A stretch of DNA of 28,083 bases, from positions 1 through 28,083 of the IMG/VR virus record IMGVR_UViG_2802429242_000010; one strand, given 5' to 3'. The notes below the pieces were generated by a model. That model saw only the letters and a program-made list of their open reading frames with translations, ran no database searches and was not told the DNA's origin. Position numbers and translations under genes: made by a program. Of this stretch, positions 19,258 through 27,462 are shown piece by piece (the first letter of the stretch is position 1; each line of letters starts with the position of its first letter). The stretch is from a virus (lineage: Duplodnaviria; Heunggongvirae; Uroviricota; Caudoviricetes).

Positions 19258-19360
19258 CGGACAGCATCAGAGCCGGAGCCATACCAAACTGCAGGTAAAC
19301 CCCGCACGTAAGCAGGCCAAAACCAGCCAGCCCGATAACATCAGCAATTAGTGATTTCAT
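19199..19360 (-). CDS. Possible small membrane protein (53 aa) between terminase and portal
   Basis: Not in the ORF track (under 60 aa). ATG overlaps the terL stop (ATGA). Translation [53 protein letters not shown] has two hydrophobic helices. Fills the terL-portal gap. Confidence 0.3.
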
Positions 19361-21090
19361 AGAATTAAGAGATCATCGTCCGGATCAAGAGATGAGAGGA
19401 AATCGTCAGGTTCTTTGAGCATTGCCCGACCGATCGTCATAATCAGTGCAACCGCACCATCGATTTTGTTTTCCGCCTGCTCCTTGACGGGCTTCACTAA
19501 ATCATCGTTACCTGGCATGTTTTTGCCGACCACATTGCCGATACACCAGGTCATGATGGGATTGCCGTCATGATGAAAGCGTCCCGATTCAATCGCTGCT
19601 TCCAGCTCTTTCATCGGATCGGACATATTGGCGAAGTTCTGGACGATAGTGACGGGATTCAGATCTTCATCAGCAAGGTCATGTGACAGCCCGGTCGCCC
19701 CGAAGGGGTCGATGGGTGACTCACTGACCGGGCTGATTTTGTTCGCCGCTTTGGCCTCTTCGAGGATGTAGCGATAATCCACCTCTGCACCATCGGTAAC
19801 GGTCAGGACGCCCATTTCCACCCATTTCTGAAAGCGTTCGGCGGTCCGGCGATCTTCATTTTTCTCGACGCTGTACACCGTGTCATACGGTACCCAGAAA
19901 CGCGGGGCCACACTGTAGTAATGCGTTTTACCGTCAATCTCGCGGGTATAAAGTCGCGCCATGCTGTTCATATCCAGCTTACGCGCCAGGTCAAAGGCCA
20001 GAATGCACGGCTGCCCCTCGAACTGCTCAAGGGTCAGTGATTTATCCTCGCAGCTCTGCCAGCTCACCAGGTTGAAATACGCCGAACGCGCCGACACCCA
20101 GATATTGAGGTGTTTTGTTTTAAAGACGTTTGCCAGACGGGCGTTATTTTTCGCACGTTGCTGCTGGCTTAACAAAAACTCGCGATAAACCGACACACCG
20201 ATATTCGGGTTAGCTTTTTCAAGTATCTGCGGGTCGGTCCAGTCGTCGCCTTCGTCAACGGTATAGATGATCCCGAACAGTTCATCGTTGGGCACCGAGC
20301 CGTTGAGCATCTCGATGACTTCCCGCCGTTTGTCGTAGCACGGCCCCTCAATGTTGTACCCGGCGGTGGTAATGGCCCACATCAGTGGCTGGCGTCGCGC
20401 CCCCATCCCGGTAAGCATTGTGGTATAAAGCGCATCGGTGGCATGCTCGTGATATTCATCAACCACGGCACAGTGGGGTGATGAACCATCACCGGGGTTG
20501 CCGATCAGCGGTTCAAACCGCGCGCCATCCTCCGGACGGTTCATGTTTGAGGCGTTAACCTCAATCCCGAACGCTTCCGTCAGCATGGGTGTGCGTTTAC
20601 ACATCAGTCGCGCCGGACGAAAGACTTCCCACGCCTGTTTCTCTGTCGTGGCACCGGAATACACTTCCGCGCCAAACTCGTTATCACAGGCAAAACAATA
20701 CAGGGCAACACCGGCAGAGATTGCCGATTTGCCGTTCTTACGGGGGATTTCGGTATACACCTCCCTGAAGCGGCGCAGCCGGGAGCCTTTATTGACCCAG
20801 CCAAACGCACAGCAGATCACAAATAGCTGCCACGGCTCCAGCGTGATGGGCATCCGTTTGAATGCCCACTCACCCTTGGTGTGCGGCAACAGCTGAATAA
20901 ATTTCGCGGCCCGTTCAGCCAGGTCCTTGTCGAAGCGGTAACGAAACGACTTACTTTTTTCCGCCATCAGGTCATCAAGATGGCGCTGGCAGGCCTGAAT
21001 CACAAACTGGCAGGCCACAATCTTTCCGCGCACGACATCACGGGCATACTGATTGGCAGCATTTACGTTGGGGTAAGATTTCCGGCTCAT
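19357..21090 (-). CDS. Terminase large subunit
   Basis: 577 aa; N-terminal ATPase region and C-terminal nuclease-type acidic motifs; start overlaps the terS stop (ATGA). Confidence 0.9.
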
Positions 21091-21581
21091 GATTCGATGA
21101 TTTTCAGAAACGGGTTAGTGGCTTTCTTCTGCCCCGCCAGGCCAATCAGACGCTGGCGGCTGCTGGGGTCGAGTCCGAGCATTGCCCCCGTGCTGCTCAT
21201 CTCGGACTCCTGTTCTTTTTTGGCGGTCAGCTCCGGATTTTTGACCCTGCCGCCCATTGCGCCGGTGATGGTGTTGCCCTGTATGGCAATATTTTTCACG
21301 GCACGTCGCCAGAACTCATAGGCCACGCACCACCGCTCAAGCACCGCGAGGTCAGTCACGCACAGCAGGCCCTGACCGCAGAGTTCTTTGGTTGTCAGTT
21401 GCCACATGATCGTGGCGAGAGGGAGATCTTCTTCAGCGAACCACTCCGGTGGCTCAACACCTTTGATGGGCGTAAAAACAGGTTCATCTTTGTTCAGGGC
21501 TCGCTTGCCGGGGTTTCCGGCCAGCGCCTTGCGCGCCGTTGGCTTGGGGCGACGCCCGGAACGCCCCGCCGTTCCAGCCAT
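21087..21581 (-). CDS. Terminase small subunit (P27-like family)
   Basis: Basic N-terminus ([29 protein letters not shown]) typical of P27-family TerS. Start placed at ATG with AGGAG 8 nt upstream; the track start at 21590 is a GTG. Confidence 0.75.
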
Positions 21582-21590
21582 ATGCGGCAC

Positions 21591-21706
21591 TCCTGGTTAA
21601 ATTTCATTTTTCGCGGGTGTAAAAAAACGATGGGGCGGGCAGTCCGGAAGACGTCAGGTCACAGAGATTTGACCCGCCCCTCCCCTCAGACAGTTGAGAA
21701 TTATTA
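21591..21706. other. Candidate cos / packaging-initiation region between the HNH and terS genes
   Basis: 116-nt intergenic region containing the GC-rich inverted repeat GGGGCGGG (about 21632..21639) and CCCGCCCC (about 21673..21680). HNH-terS arrangement is characteristic of cos phages of the HK97 type. Confidence 0.35.
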
Positions 21707-22057
21707 TCACTTAAGTCGTTCACGGGCCGTCTTCGCCTTATGACACGGCCAGCACAGACTCTGCAGATTACAGTCGGCATCAGTGCCGCCATGCGCTTTA
21801 GGGATGATGTGGTCAACGGTTTTCGCCTCACGCACCACACCAGCACGCAGACATAACTGACACAGGCCTTTGTCACGCTTCAGGACACCCGCGCGGATAC
21901 TGTCCCACTTCGAACCATAACCGCGCTGATGACGGGATTGTCCTGGCTTGTATTGCTTCCAGCCCTCGCTTTTGTGGCTTTCGCAATAGCCTGACGGATC
22001 AGTCGTGGTATTGCGGCAACCGCGAAAACGGCAGGCTTTTGGGGTTCGTGGTGGCAT
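21707..22057 (-). CDS. HNH endonuclease (terminase-associated)
   Basis: 116 aa; N-terminal Cys cluster (CRFRGC...C) and HNH core (DHIIPKAHGGTDADCNLQSLCWPCHKAK). RBS GAGGGG 5 nt upstream. Confidence 0.85.
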   Translation of the reverse strand: MPPRTPKACRFRGCRNTTTDPSGYCESHKSEGWKQYKPGQSRHQRGYGSKWDSIRAGVLKRDKGLCQLCLRAGVVREAKTVDHIIPKAHGGTDADCNLQSLCWPCHKAKTARERLK

Positions 22058-22092
22058 TTATATCCCCTCTTTGGTGCACGCTTACAATGCGT

Positions 22093-22116
22093 AAAAAAGC
22101 CTCGCATTAGCGAGGC
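22093..22116 (-). terminator. Intrinsic terminator (minus strand) downstream of the 74-aa ORF
   Basis: Minus-strand transcript has GCCUCGC-uaau-GCGAGGC followed by UUUUUU (plus-strand A-run about 22093..22098). Confidence 0.6.
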
Positions 22117-22223
22117 TCGTTTATATCTTGAAGGTGAATACTTATTGTCTTATCTATCCACGGGAAACATTAAGATTATTACACCCGTTAGTTGGGAAAT
22201 AAAACAAAATGCAGGTGGTTTAT

Positions 22224-22448
22224 TTATTCTTTGCTGATTGCTTTCTGAATGGCATCGGCTAATGGTTCAATTAAGCCAATAGCTGCTTTTAATTCCTGTT
22301 CAAATTTTGCACTTGTAGCCTGACCACCTGCAGAAGAAAGTGAGGCCTTAACTAATTCAAGGGCAGCTTGAACAGCTATAACCCTCTGTTTTTGAGCTTG
22401 AGTTACAGGCTGAGCACCTATTCCTGAAGGGAAATAATTCTCTAACAT
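22224..22448 (-). CDS. Hypothetical small Ala/Gln-rich protein (74 aa)
   Basis: Good RBS (GGAGG, 5-nt spacing) and a terminator downstream; predicted helical, no recognisable family; in an AT-rich stretch. Confidence 0.5.
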   Translation of the reverse strand: MLENYFPSGIGAQPVTQAQKQRVIAVQAALELVKASLSSAGGQATSAKFEQELKAAIGLIEPLADAIQKAISKE

Positions 22449-22715
22449 TACAACCTCCGTATTAAAAAGTGAGGTTACACATTACCCTTAAGATTACTCT
22501 TAGTGAAGAGGTATCTCATAATTATCACCCTTACCAATAACGCTTGATGAAATTTGTAATGGACTGGCTCTTATTTCAACGCAACCACTTACCGCGCGCC
22601 AGATGCTTAACCTCAAACATTAGCAATGAGATGTTTAATCTGAATCCACTCCAGAAGTAATCACCACTCTGTCTACAGGGCCTGATGTGAAGGATGATGA
22701 GTAAAATTATCGCTA

Positions 22716-23640: not shown

Positions 23641-23967
23641 TTACTCCTTAGAGCCACCAAACTTATTACCGATTACTCGCATTGCAGCCCCACGAATAGC
23701 ATCGACCCCGATCAGCCCAACGCCGCCACCAATGGCAACAGAAAGAGATTTAGGCCATCCGACATACTCAAGAGCGGATGCAAAAGTCAGCGTCAGAGCA
23801 CCACAGAGCAAAATCTCGAGCGTTTTTCGTTTCCAGCCACCACCACCGCCAAAATAGGCAATACGTAAACCAGCCATAACGATCGACATAATCACTGCGC
23901 CCAGCGGTGTGTCTCCACGCCACCAGCTCTGGACCAACTCCAGCCAAGTATTTGGGTTATGAGGCAT
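23641..23967 (-). CDS. S: Holin (class I, lambda S-like)
   Basis: 108 aa, three predicted TM segments and charged C-terminus; immediately upstream of the R/Rz/Rz1 genes. Confidence 0.8.
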   Translation of the reverse strand: MPHNPNTWLELVQSWWRGDTPLGAVIMSIVMAGLRIAYFGGGGGWKRKTLEILLCGALTLTFASALEYVGWPKSLSVAIGGGVGLIGVDAIRGAAMRVIGNKFGGSKE

Positions 23968-24246: not shown

Positions 24247-26037
24247 ATGAGCACAGAATTAAAACTAAAGAAAATTATGGCATCGTCTAAAATTGAGCCA
24301 TTTATTAGACATATTCGTTTTCCTTTTTTTAAAAACCTTGCAGAGGGTAGCAAGATTGATTTTGAGTATCCAATTACAGCATTAGTTGGTCAAAACGGGA
24401 CCAATAAAAGTTCTGTTTTAAGAGCCCTATTCGGTTCTCCAAACAACTATTCTCTGGGTAGCTTATGGTTTTCTACAGATGTAGATGAGATTAAAGATGG
24501 TGGTCGTTCTAGATTTATTTATGGATATTATGACAAAGCTACTGATTCAATTGTTGAAGTAATTAAAACTCGAATCTCTAAAGAAAATGATCCTGATTAC
24601 TGGGAACCATCCAGACCATTAAAATCCGACAACATGGCTCCAATGCCTAGTACAAAAATCTCAACCAATCAACTAAGGACTAGGTGGAAAGCTATTGACA
24701 AAAATGTAATATATTTAGATTTCAGAGCAACTATCAGTGCATTTGATAAGTTCTTTTATCACTCTGATTTTCATACATACCCTAAGAAAGATTATCTTAG
24801 AAAACGCAGTCAGATGCTAAAAGACATTATAGATAACGATCTTAAAAAATATCAACCTCATAAAGGAAAAAAAGACAAGCTATTTGTTAACACTTTATTA
24901 GAAAAAAGTAAGGTAGAGGCAATCAGCAAGATTTTAGGTCGCAAATACACAAGCATCCGCCTTATTGAACATAGCTTATTCACTAATGACAAAGCTCCCA
25001 CAATTATTCTTCAATCAGAAAACTTAAAATATTCTGAAGCTTTCGCAGGCAGTGGGGAATTTGCTGTATCTATATTAGTGCATAAACTAATGGATAGCCC
25101 TGATGCATCTTTAATTCTGCTAGATGAACCTGAAGTATCACTTCACCCTTCTGCTCAATGTCAATTGATGGAATTTTTATCAGAACAAGCACTTAAAAAG
25201 AAACATCAAATTGTCATATCCACACATTCATCAACAATAGTAAAAGACTTGCCTAAAAATGCCATAAAATTATTCTGTCTGAATGATAAAGTAGGAAAGG
25301 TTGATGTTCTTCAAAATGTCAGCCCAGAAGAATCTTTCTTTATTCTTGGTGAACGCATTGATAAAAGAACCGTTATTGTAGAAGATCGGTTAGCGAAGAG
25401 GTTTGTAGAAAAGGCGCTTAAAGCGGGTGGTGAAGCATTATTAAACTCCTTCGAAGTAAAACATGTTCCTGGAGGAGCGGGAAGTATTCTTCAAACTTTG
25501 GCTGTGCCTTTATGTGTTGCCAATGTTAAAAACGTTATTTTCTTATTAGATGGTGACCAATCGAGAACTGATGATTATCCAACTTCTGATTCCATACCAG
25601 AAAATCAAAACACAAACCTTCAAAACATCATAAAAGAAATAACCAATCAAGATATAAAATTTAGTTGTGATGGTTCTAATGGCTCATCAAATAACAATCA
25701 AAAATACAAAATGCAAAGAAATTTTATCGATTTCATCCACGATAAAATTGCTTTTCTTCCTGTTTATACTCCTGAAGCATTTCTTATTGAGAATGTTCAT
25801 GGTGATTATAAAGAATATAAAGATCAAATCCCCAAAAACATTCAAGATGCTAAAGAAATCACCAAAGAACTTTGTAAGTTAGACACAGGGTTGGAGAACG
25901 TTACCAGTGACGATATCTTTGAAACACAAATCAGAATTCTTAATAAAATACCAAATAATCATGAAGTGTTAACAAAAACTCGAGAGTTGCTGCAAATCTT
26001 TTTAGATAATGATACTATCAGACCAAGAGTGAGGTAG
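24247..26037 (+). CDS. P-loop ATPase with Toprim-like C-terminal region (OLD / PARIS-like architecture); candidate ATP-dependent nuclease
   Basis: 596 aa. N-terminal Walker A (ALVGQNGTNKSSVL), ABC-like region (FAGSGEFA), Walker B (LILLDEPEVSLHP) and H-loop-like VISTHS. C-terminal half has Toprim-like acidic motifs (TVIVEDRLAKRF and NVIFLLDGDQ). Strongly AT-rich. Domain calls are by-eye motif recognition. Confidence 0.6.
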   Translation: MSTELKLKKIMASSKIEPFIRHIRFPFFKNLAEGSKIDFEYPITALVGQNGTNKSSVLRALFGSPNNYSLGSLWFSTDVDEIKDGGRSRFIYGYYDKATDSIVEVIKTRISKENDPDYWEPSRPLKSDNMAPMPSTKISTNQLRTRWKAIDKNVIYLDFRATISAFDKFFYHSDFHTYPKKDYLRKRSQMLKDIIDNDLKKYQPHKGKKDKLFVNTLLEKSKVEAISKILGRKYTSIRLIEHSLFTNDKAPTIILQSENLKYSEAFAGSGEFAVSILVHKLMDSPDASLILLDEPEVSLHPSAQCQLMEFLSEQALKKKHQIVISTHSSTIVKDLPKNAIKLFCLNDKVGKVDVLQNVSPEESFFILGERIDKRTVIVEDRLAKRFVEKALKAGGEALLNSFEVKHVPGGAGSILQTLAVPLCVANVKNVIFLLDGDQSRTDDYPTSDSIPENQNTNLQNIIKEITNQDIKFSCDGSNGSSNNNQKYKMQRNFIDFIHDKIAFLPVYTPEAFLIENVHGDYKEYKDQIPKNIQDAKEITKELCKLDTGLENVTSDDIFETQIRILNKIPNNHEVLTKTRELLQIFLDNDTIRPRVR

Positions 26038-26040
26038 ATA

Positions 26041-27081
26041 ATGGCTAAAAAGATACACGTTTACGATTTCTTTTCCGGCTGCGGCGGAACCAGTGTAGGC
26101 CTAAAAGCGGTGGGAATGGAAATTATTTTCGGTTTAGATATTGATCTAGACTCCGCTAACACCTTTAAAATGAATAATCCATTTGCACATTTTATCAATG
26201 GTGATATCAAAGATACACACGTTGAGGAAATTAAGCATCTGGTTTGTGCGTCAACACAAAGCAAAGCTCTAACCCTTTTTTGTGGTTGTGCTCCATGTCA
26301 ACCATTCTCGAAACAAAATAAAATACGGAACGAGGATGATCCGAGAAAAGATCTGCTTACTGAGTTTGCACGGTTTGTCTCTTATTATACGCCAGACTTT
26401 GTACTGGTAGAGAATGTACCAGGAATCCAAAATGTCGATATTAACAATGGAAATTTCCAGAAATTTCTTGAGGTTTTAGCACATCATCACTACAACGTTG
26501 ATTTTGGTGTGATTCCTGCGTTGTGGTTCGGGGTTCCTCAAACACGTGAACGTTTTGTTTTACTGGCGTCAAAACACACGAATATTAAGCTTCCATCACA
26601 AACTCATGATGGATTAAAAACTCCGTATGCAACTGTCAGAGACTGGATCGGCGGATTACCTCCTATTGCTGCCGGTGAAACTCATAAAGATGTTATGGAT
26701 CATACAGCAGCCAAACTATCTGATCTAAATATTAAACGTATTAAAGCGACTCCTGAGGGAAAAGGTAGAGAATCTTGGCCTGAAGAACTTATACTAAAAT
26801 GCCATAAAAAATATAAAGGGCATACTGATGTTTATGGACGGCTTTCTTGGGACAAACCAGCAAGTGGATTAACAACTAGATGTATAAGCTATTCGAATGG
26901 ACGTTTCGGACATCCAGAGCAAGATAGGGCTATTTCTGTTAGAGAGGCTGCGTTATTACAGACTTTCCCATTAGACTATTCCTTCACAGGCTCTTTAGTC
27001 TCGAAAGCCAAACAGATAGGGAATGCAGTCCCTCCCAAGATGGCTGAAGCTCTTGGAAGGGCTATCATCGCATCACTTTAA
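26041..27081 (+). CDS. DNA (cytosine-5)-methyltransferase
   Basis: 346 aa with canonical C5-MTase motifs in order: I FSGCGG, IV PCQPFS (catalytic Cys), VI ENV, VIII QTRERF, X GNAVPP. Starts 3 nt after the ATPase stop (operon-like). Confidence 0.9.
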   Translation: MAKKIHVYDFFSGCGGTSVGLKAVGMEIIFGLDIDLDSANTFKMNNPFAHFINGDIKDTHVEEIKHLVCASTQSKALTLFCGCAPCQPFSKQNKIRNEDDPRKDLLTEFARFVSYYTPDFVLVENVPGIQNVDINNGNFQKFLEVLAHHHYNVDFGVIPALWFGVPQTRERFVLLASKHTNIKLPSQTHDGLKTPYATVRDWIGGLPPIAAGETHKDVMDHTAAKLSDLNIKRIKATPEGKGRESWPEELILKCHKKYKGHTDVYGRLSWDKPASGLTTRCISYSNGRFGHPEQDRAISVREAALLQTFPLDYSFTGSLVSKAKQIGNAVPPKMAEALGRAIIASL

Positions 27082-27091
27082 AAGCGGAGCC

Positions 27092-27445
27092 CTAGAGGGC
27101 TTCGCCTAACAATAATAGAATACCTGATATAAACCCTATAGCTCCCTGAAGCTCTTTTCTAATTGCTCCATCAGAGCATTTTCTTTTCTTAGCAATGGTG
27201 CGTAATGAGATACCAATCACAAAATGAGCAATGATCAGCTCATATTCTTCTGGTTTATACTTCCGCAGGCGGGCGACACAGCCATCAATCATGATGCCTT
27301 CATCATCATCGCACTGAATCCGGGACTTTCTGCCATGAGGTAAAAGCCCCTTGAAGCCAGCGGCTACCGGTTGCCAATCCACACCACTGTTCTCTGCCGC
27401 AGCCCACGCTCCCCAACGGTCTAATACTTCATACATATCACACAT
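27092..27445 (-). CDS. Q: Late-gene antitermination protein Q (phage 82 / DLP12 QuuD-like family)
   Basis: About 117 aa from ATG with RBS GGAG upstream; similar to the QuuD-type Q protein I recall (..LERWGAWAA...AAGFKGL...CDDD..I..GC.ARL...). Located upstream of the lysis cassette on the same strand. Confidence 0.75.
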   Translation of the reverse strand: MCDMYEVLDRWGAWAAAENSGVDWQPVAAGFKGLLPHGRKSRIQCDDDEGIMIDGCVARLRKYKPEEYELIIAHFVIGISLRTIAKKRKCSDGAIRKELQGAIGFISGILLLLGEAL

Positions 27446-27462
27446 CAACTTTCTCCACCAAA

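Follow-up and report, generated by a model that had tools for sequence, protein, structure and literature searches.

Does the short non-coding gap between an HNH endonuclease gene and the small terminase gene terS of an integrated prophage hold the cos site at which the phage genome is cut for packaging, and is the GC-rich inverted repeat found in that gap a part of how the site is recognised? Both had been proposed in a sequence-only reading of the 28,083-nucleotide stretch of viral DNA considered here (the whole of which we call the window), where the gap was taken to hold the cos of an HK97-style packaging module and the repeat to be a symmetric element of the kind used for nicking or for terminase binding.

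Gene context of the interval

The HNH, terS and terL genes of the window are all encoded on the minus strand, and the two genes that bound the gap are those named in the sequence-only reading:

21707-22057, minus strand: HNH endonuclease gene (Pfam HNH, E 5e-15)
21087-21590 (GTG start) or 21087-21581 (ATG start), minus strand: terS, small terminase of the P27 family (Terminase_4/P27, E 4e-20)
19357-21090, minus strand: terL, large terminase (Pfam TerL_ATPase and TerL_nuclease)

The HNH gene lies directly upstream of terS and terL, which is the gene order by which an HNH-assisted packaging module is recognised. In translation, its product has an N-terminal zinc-ribbon-like CxxxxC...CxxH motif that is followed by the HNH domain. 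The closest solved structure, that of the HNH protein of Geobacillus phage GVE2 (5h0m, E 4.6e-13), likewise consists of an N-terminal zinc ribbon and an HNH domain, and the HNH core is 43% identical to that of HK97 gp74 across 42 aa. TerL is 26% identical to HK97 gp2 over ~500 aa (BLASTP, E 2e-30). Downstream of terL come the portal gene and those for a prohead protease (S78) and a capsid protein with the HK97 fold, and then, farther along, genes for the tail sheath, the tape measure, DinI and an integrase; Rz, endolysin, holin and a Q-like antiterminator are encoded upstream of the HNH gene. The late genes within the window are all full-length. This gene content is that of a temperate phage under lambdoid regulation, whose head and packaging module are of the HK97 type and whose tail is contractile.

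Translation of terS more likely starts with the ATG at 21581-21579 than with the GTG at 21590; an AGGAG ribosome-binding site lies ahead of the ATG at 21590-21594, and the terS genes of phages SfV and SfI are annotated from the equivalent ATG. The gap had been described as 116 nt long, which holds as a count from the GTG codon, but since terS more likely starts at the ATG, the non-coding gap becomes 21582-21706, or 125 nt.

Two other features of this neighbourhood are recorded here. An intrinsic terminator on the minus strand at 22092-22123, which consists of a AGCCTCGC-TAAT-GCGAGGCT hairpin and a T6 run, sits between a 74-aa ORF (22224-22448, phrog_5901) and the HNH gene, and its hairpin is the source of sub-threshold Rfam matches (e.g., Leu_leader, 27 bits). 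Q antitermination is presumably required for late transcripts to reach HNH, cos and terS. Between the Q-like antiterminator gene (27092-27448) and the holin gene (23641-23967), two opposite-strand genes occupy 24247-27081 on the plus strand. One encodes a 596-aa AAA_15/AAA_21 ATPase whose top PADLOC matches are HEC-04 and ATPase-Toprim_I-B (OLD/Gabija-like) and the other a 346-aa C-5 cytosine DNA methyltransferase, so that the pair has the appearance of a defence or moron cassette carried by the prophage.

Placement of the cohesive ends

For Shigella phage SfI, the termini have been sequenced on DNA of free phage particles, with one primer site in the HNH gene and another in terS, and these ends show a 10-nt gap relative to the prophage, 5'-TGCCCGCCCC-3' (PMC3636060). 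An identical 10-mer is present in one copy in the window, on the minus strand at 21632-21641. The SfI database record ends with ...GGACTGCCCGCCCC and starts with GTCG, in keeping with the mapped gap. The record of the Stx2e phage phiP27, on which the P27 family of small terminases was founded, carries a 10-nt "cos-site" feature, CGCCCGCCCC in gene orientation, which aligns with the TGCCCGCCCC of the window, and the paper on SfIV states that cos is common to SfI, SfII, SfIV and SfV. The matches of the interval to known phages are as follows:

vB_EcoM-720R4: 97.4% identity, whole interval
SKA5: 95.7% identity, whole interval
SfII: 94.8% identity, whole interval
SfV and SfIV: 98.3% identity, terS-proximal half
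Salmonella phage ST64B: 94.5% identity, 95% of the interval
SfI: 96.8% identity, over the aligned parts
phiP27: 78.8% identity, 84% of the interval, the match overlapping the annotated "cos-site"

The Shigella phages SfI, SfV, SfII and SfIV and Salmonella phage ST64B have the gene order HNH, cos, terS, terL and the 10-nt cohesive end that are seen in the window, and the interval as it occurs in SfV, SfII and SfIV is 95-98% identical in nucleotide sequence. The differences are a few point changes, among them an A in the window against a G in SfI at +1. The copy in the window is an integrated prophage whose ends are placed by homology, whereas those of SfI were mapped on virion DNA; it is homology, accordingly, that shows the putative cut site in concatemeric DNA and its 10-nt stagger to lie around TGCCCGCCCC on the minus strand at 21632-21641.

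The exact SfI end, the aligned phiP27 feature and the ends of the SfI record bear out the proposal that the packaging module is HK97-style and has its cos in the HNH-terS gap. We assign a probability of roughly 0.9 to the reading that this interval serves as cos in a temperate myovirus prophage of the SfV/SfI/phiP27 kind, which would package its DNA in the manner of HK97 with TerS, TerL and the HNH protein. Since this site is already known in near-identical phages, the novelty of its location is low.

The same sequence might instead be a relic, that is, a cos-like site left unused in a prophage that is defective or that packages its DNA by the headful. This seems to us very improbable in view of the 95-98% identity of the interval to plaque-forming phages, the full-length late genes, a TerL of the HK97 type and the occurrence of the HNH-cos-terS region in 1127 of 5426 complete E. 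coli genomes. Despite its intact-looking site and late genes, the prophage of the window could itself be defective.

Two of the database records show peculiarities at this site. The SfV record (U82619.2) is split between TCT and TCCGGACTGCCCGCCCC, 7 nt upstream of the end mapped in SfI; the sequences of SfV and SfI agree here despite the 7-nt difference in their record ends, and the SfV ends were either approximately placed or mapped differently. For E. coli CX04, an HNH-cos-terS region that is 99.3% identical to that of the window is found on a separate 37,667-bp record (NZ_CP081716.1) in addition to another on the chromosome; the separate record is probably an excised or replicating copy of a phage genome that was assembled as a replicon.

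Conserved architecture around the cut

For a wider comparison, the region upstream of terS was gathered from six further phages (of Klebsiella, Pseudomonas, Moraxella, Psychrobacter and Vibrio), from one Burkholderia phage and from 80 loci in bacterial genomes; the TerS proteins of these 80 loci are 48-99% identical to that of the window. The related bacterial loci were searched with a 5-sequence alignment. A scan of viral contigs returned relatives that were all at least 99% identical and so uninformative on conservation. The final alignment comprises 85 unique sequences, drawn from Enterobacterales, Pseudomonas, Moraxella, Psychrobacter, the Burkholderia phage and HK97; Vibrio phage H2 was left out because its HNH gene abuts terS. 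Since the sampled sequences are phylogenetically related, the conservation counts given below overstate the independence of the observations.

Nearly all of the 85 sequences share one layout, in which a G-box is followed at a constant 27-28 nt by GAC, a C-rich 10-mer, a T-tract, a ACCCGCGAAA box, the ribosome-binding site and terS. In the window, the elements of this layout are:

21673-21687, minus strand: G-box, GAGGGGAGGGGCGGG (1.21 bits/position across the 85 relatives, including HK97)
21662-21672, minus strand: TCAAATCTCTG motif directly after the G-box (1.18 bits/position)
21645-21661, minus strand: spacer of variable sequence (0.48 bits/position) and fixed length (within 1 nt)
21642-21644, minus strand: conserved GAC (1.40 bits/position)
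21632-21641, minus strand: C-rich cohesive-end 10-mer TGCCCGCCCC, the putative cosN core, identical to the SfI cos (0.94 bits/position)
21620-21631, minus strand: ATCG and then a T7 tract, directly downstream of the cut (T-tract, 1.45 bits/position)
21597-21619, minus strand: CACCCGCGAAAAATGAAATTTAA box, +13 to +35 from the cut (1.45 bits/position)

G-box and GAC lie 27-28 nt apart in 83 of 84 sequences, HK97 included, and the TCAAATC of the motif at 21662-21672 also occurs in HK97 in the same register. Across the 85 sequences the downstream box takes the form ACCCGCGAAA(A/T)(A/T)NAAATTT and shares with the T-tract the highest conservation of all the blocks (1.45 bits/position), across TerS proteins that are only 35-100% identical. 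The G-box, the spacing, the T-tract and the ACCCGCGAAA box are all kept in phiP27, with its 10-nt cos-site at the aligned position, although the phage differs from the window in the sequence of the interval (79% identity) and in its TerS (48-49% identical).

With respect to these elements, the top-strand nick is predicted between 21632 and 21631 and the bottom-strand nick between 21641 and 21642, where the plus strand of the window reads CA^GTC (here and below, the caret marks the nick). The bottom-strand position follows from the boundaries of the 10-nt gap in SfI and from the 10-nt 3' overhang of HK97.

There is frequently a symmetry at the cut itself, GAC-N10-(G/A)TC, which is distinct from the 8-bp inverted repeat discussed below. 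A (G/A)TC follows the 10-mer in 41-45 of the 85 relatives, and the N10 spacing is found in 45 of 85 as against 1-3 for spacings of N7 to N9. As a universal symmetric frame, GAC-N10-RTC was rejected; only about half of the relatives have it, and the Xenorhabdus group has N11.

Departures from the common layout were seen in a few places. In loci of Phytopseudomonas/Pseudomonas, ~60 nt upstream of terS, GACCGCCCGAACGACGGGGGGAGCC replaces GAC and the C-rich 10-mer ahead of the T-tract, and this variant has the look of an inserted extra segment with a G-run. In Vibrio phage H2 PGK-2017 (535-901; TerS 50% identical), the HNH gene stops 6 nt short of terS, and neither a G-box nor a ACCCGCGAAA box was found within ~280 nt upstream of terS; the lack of an intergenic cos region implies that its cos lies elsewhere or that its packaging differs. 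Many relatives have a short AT-rich inverted repeat, AATGAGA-N5-TCTCATT, just upstream of the G-box. In many cases it overlaps the stop codon of the HNH gene; its overall conservation is poor (0.36 bits/position), and it is weak in the window (21693-21712). It could be a site for a host factor or for bending.

The inverted repeat and what its symmetry means

The repeat itself is real. Its arms, GGGGCGGG at 21632-21639 and CCCGCCCC at 21673-21680, are complementary at 8 of 8 positions and are separated by a 33-nt spacer. Some perfect 8-nt inverted repeat with a spacer of 3-60 nt arises in 6.3% of 5000 dinucleotide-preserving shuffles of the interval, whereas an all-G/C one arises in only 0.02% of them, and the pair at 21632-21639/21673-21680 is the sole all-G/C 8-nt inverted repeat in the 28-kb window. 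On these grounds the repeat is unlikely to be due to chance.

The alignment assigns the two arms to different elements of the site. The terS-proximal arm (21632-21639) falls within the cohesive-end 10-mer, and its identity as sticky end rests on the match of that 10-mer to the mapped end of SfI; the HNH-proximal arm (21673-21680) falls within the G-box. Complementarity between the arms was examined in 75 distinct haplotypes of the G-box and cos segment by permutation against mismatched pairs. Within a sequence the longest complementary run is 4.91 nt on average, against 4.86 nt for pairs taken from different sequences (p=0.33), and a score based on ungapped matches agrees with this result (p=0.80). 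Perfect 8-bp complementarity is confined among the 75 haplotypes to the SfV/phiP27 subgroup and, independently, Gilliamella.

These data bear on the notion of a functional dyad, in which a dimeric terminase or HNH complex would bind the two GC-rich arms symmetrically. The rarity of an 8/8 all-G/C repeat in the shuffles and the conservation of both arms in the SfV/phiP27 subgroup are what such binding would lead one to expect, but complementary runs that are no longer within sequences than between them are not, and HK97 and most relatives keep the G-box and its spacing with just 3-5 nt of complementarity. Moreover, the arms are 41 bp apart and off-centre relative to the cut. A dyad of this kind is quite unlikely in our estimation. 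Since complementarity is no better within sequences than between them, there is no sign of selection for symmetry, and the 8-bp repeat is best read as a by-product of the coexistence of a conserved G-rich box and a C-rich sticky end. The part of the sequence-only reading that made the repeat a symmetric nicking or binding element does not survive this comparison, because its arms are a sticky end and a separate G-box whose complementarity is not maintained across the family.

The two arms and the T7 tract might also be thought to act in RNA, as a hairpin with a U-tract that terminates or attenuates the late transcript, either beside or instead of a cos function. The gene-strand RNA does fold with the arms paired and U7 behind them (-26.5 kcal/mol, z = -1.9), the arms also pair in the RNA folds of many family members, several relatives giving folds similar to that of the window, and the T-tract is among the best conserved parts of the site (1.45 bits/position). 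Yet the RNAalifold consensus structure is empty, covariation between the arms is absent from the 75 haplotypes, the loop would be 33 nt long, and HK97 lacks a T-tract after its cut. The mapped DNA ends lie within the supposed stem, and a canonical terminator is already present upstream of the HNH gene at 22092-22123. We regard an RNA element here as unlikely. A rho-independent terminator in the strict sense (a GC-rich stem with a 3-8 nt loop and a T-run) was rejected on account of the 33 nt between the arms and the lack of a conserved fold. A scan for promoters and terminators found no promoter-like site and no canonical terminator in 21582-21706, and an Rfam scan of 21000-22600 (E<=1) gave no match within the same interval.

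Comparison with HK97 and lambda

HK97 has 10-nt 3' overhangs according to the Figure 1 legend of PMC9410871 and a later PNAS paper. The Discussion of PMC9410871 gives 10-nt 5' overhangs for lambda and 12-nt 3' overhangs for HK97, which contradicts its own figure legend; the two numbers were apparently swapped. The HK97 cleavage position corresponds to base 1 of its record, a numbering that was checked against the published T16, C:G21 and A-tract 24-29, and the right end of the genome reads ...GGGCAGGGGGGGGGATCAAATCTTCAAAACCTTTGCCCCAAATGAC^CGCCGCCAAA. The overhang CGCCGCCAAA begins directly after GAC, in the register seen in SfI, and a G-run followed by TCAAATC lies 28 nt from that GAC. The HNH gene is the last and terS the first on the virion map of HK97, whose TerS site lies downstream of the cut beside an A/T tract. 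The differences are in the sequence of the sticky end, which forms no inverted repeat with the G-run, in the missing T-tract directly after the cut, in a TerS without detectable sequence relation to that of the window and in the morphology of the virion, HK97 being a siphovirus whereas the prophage of the window has a contractile-tail module.

The gap in both SfI run-off reads is what 3' overhangs would give and is consistent with the situation in HK97. From these two phages we infer 3' polarity for the SfV/SfI/phiP27 subgroup, and the element in the window would have unique ends with 10-nt 3' overhangs.

The cos of phage lambda is composed of cosQ, cosN and cosB, in which the site of the staggered nicks lies between an upstream element and a downstream site for the small terminase; its overhang is 12 nt and 5', its gpNu1 R-sites are accompanied by an IHF site, and lambda is not known to use an HNH protein. 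The site in the window follows the same three-part logic of an upstream element, a nick site and a downstream TerS site, but there is no sequence similarity between the two, and the TerS of the window is of the Terminase_4 rather than the Nu1 type. A lambda-type cos was rejected for the window on the basis of that TerS, the 10-nt sticky end and a search of 21400-22200 that found no direct repeats of the R-site type.

A probable recognition site for TerS

The TerS site of HK97 extends from +15 to +29 and has a critical C:G pair beside a flexible A-tract, which is read by arginines from the otherwise disordered N- and C-terminal arms of the protein. In the window, CCCGCG and then an A-tract occupy +15 to +25 within the most conserved block of the site. 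We liken this block to the HK97 site because of its similar position and its similar "C:G next to an A-tract" composition, and by this analogy the ACCCGCGAAA box at 21597-21619 is the probable TerS recognition site and the equivalent of cosB. In the structural model of the window TerS, the N-terminal 28 residues are disordered and basic. Searches for a relationship between HK97 gp1 and this TerS by BLASTP, Pfam and hhalign found none, a profile of the TerS gave chance matches only against PDB sequences, and its model had no match in the PDB by Foldseek. In the scheme that we propose, TerS would recognise the ACCCGCGAAAAATGAAATTT box at +13 to +35 from the cut; bound there, it would position TerL and the HNH protein at the initiation of packaging and stall the motor at the same place at termination.

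Which nuclease might cut which strand

At the aligned position of the bottom-strand nick, AC[C/T]G is found in 77 of the 85 sequences. The context is GAC^CG in HK97, phiP27 and most relatives and GAC^TG in SfI and the window; the sticky end of phiP27 starts with C, which gives AC^CG where the window has AC^TG. The terminase-linked HNH nickases N.phiGamma and N.phiE2 (the latter from GVE2) nick at CG^GT (= AC^CG), and the catalytic domain of N.phiGamma recognises ACTG as a star site (Xu and Gupta, PMC3592412). It has been proposed in the literature that the HNH protein and TerL each nick one of the two strands. When they act alone, gp74 of HK97 and some further packaging HNH proteins have been reported to be non-specific.

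The agreement between the nearly invariant AC^YG and the CG^GT/CA^GT specificity of the HNH nickases suggests a division of labour in which the HNH protein would nick the bottom strand at the conserved AC^YG, which reads C(A/G)^GTC on the opposite strand, and the nuclease of TerL would nick the top strand, so as to leave ends with 3' overhangs like those of HK97. In view of the reported non-specificity of gp74 and other packaging HNH proteins on their own, the agreement may be a coincidence of a 4-bp motif. The G-box, at its fixed distance of 27-28 bp upstream of GAC, would in this scheme be a cosQ-like element; it is more likely to be read by TerL or the HNH protein than by TerS, because HK97, with a TerS of unrelated sequence, has the G-box as well. 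We offer the strand assignment (HNH bottom, TerL top), together with this role of the G-box, as a tentative proposal that is somewhat more apt to be wrong than right. Neither was found in the literature covered, outside of which lie Kala 2014, Allison 2002 and Recktenwald 2002, and a literature search for the sequence strings of the site gave only noise.

Significance

What the present analysis adds to the known location of cos in the near relatives of this prophage is the set of exact cut coordinates in the window, the recognition that its inverted repeat is incidental and a conserved architecture with a testable assignment of strands. The outcome is a testable map of an HK97-type cos, consisting of a G-box, a fixed spacer, GAC^N10, a T-tract and a TerS box, and a specific prediction as to which nuclease, HNH or TerL, might nick which strand. 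The genome ends are thereby fixed for a prophage family found in roughly one in five complete E. coli genomes, which provides exact coordinates for linearising such prophage genomes and marks these elements as cos packagers, with a correspondingly low risk of generalised transduction.
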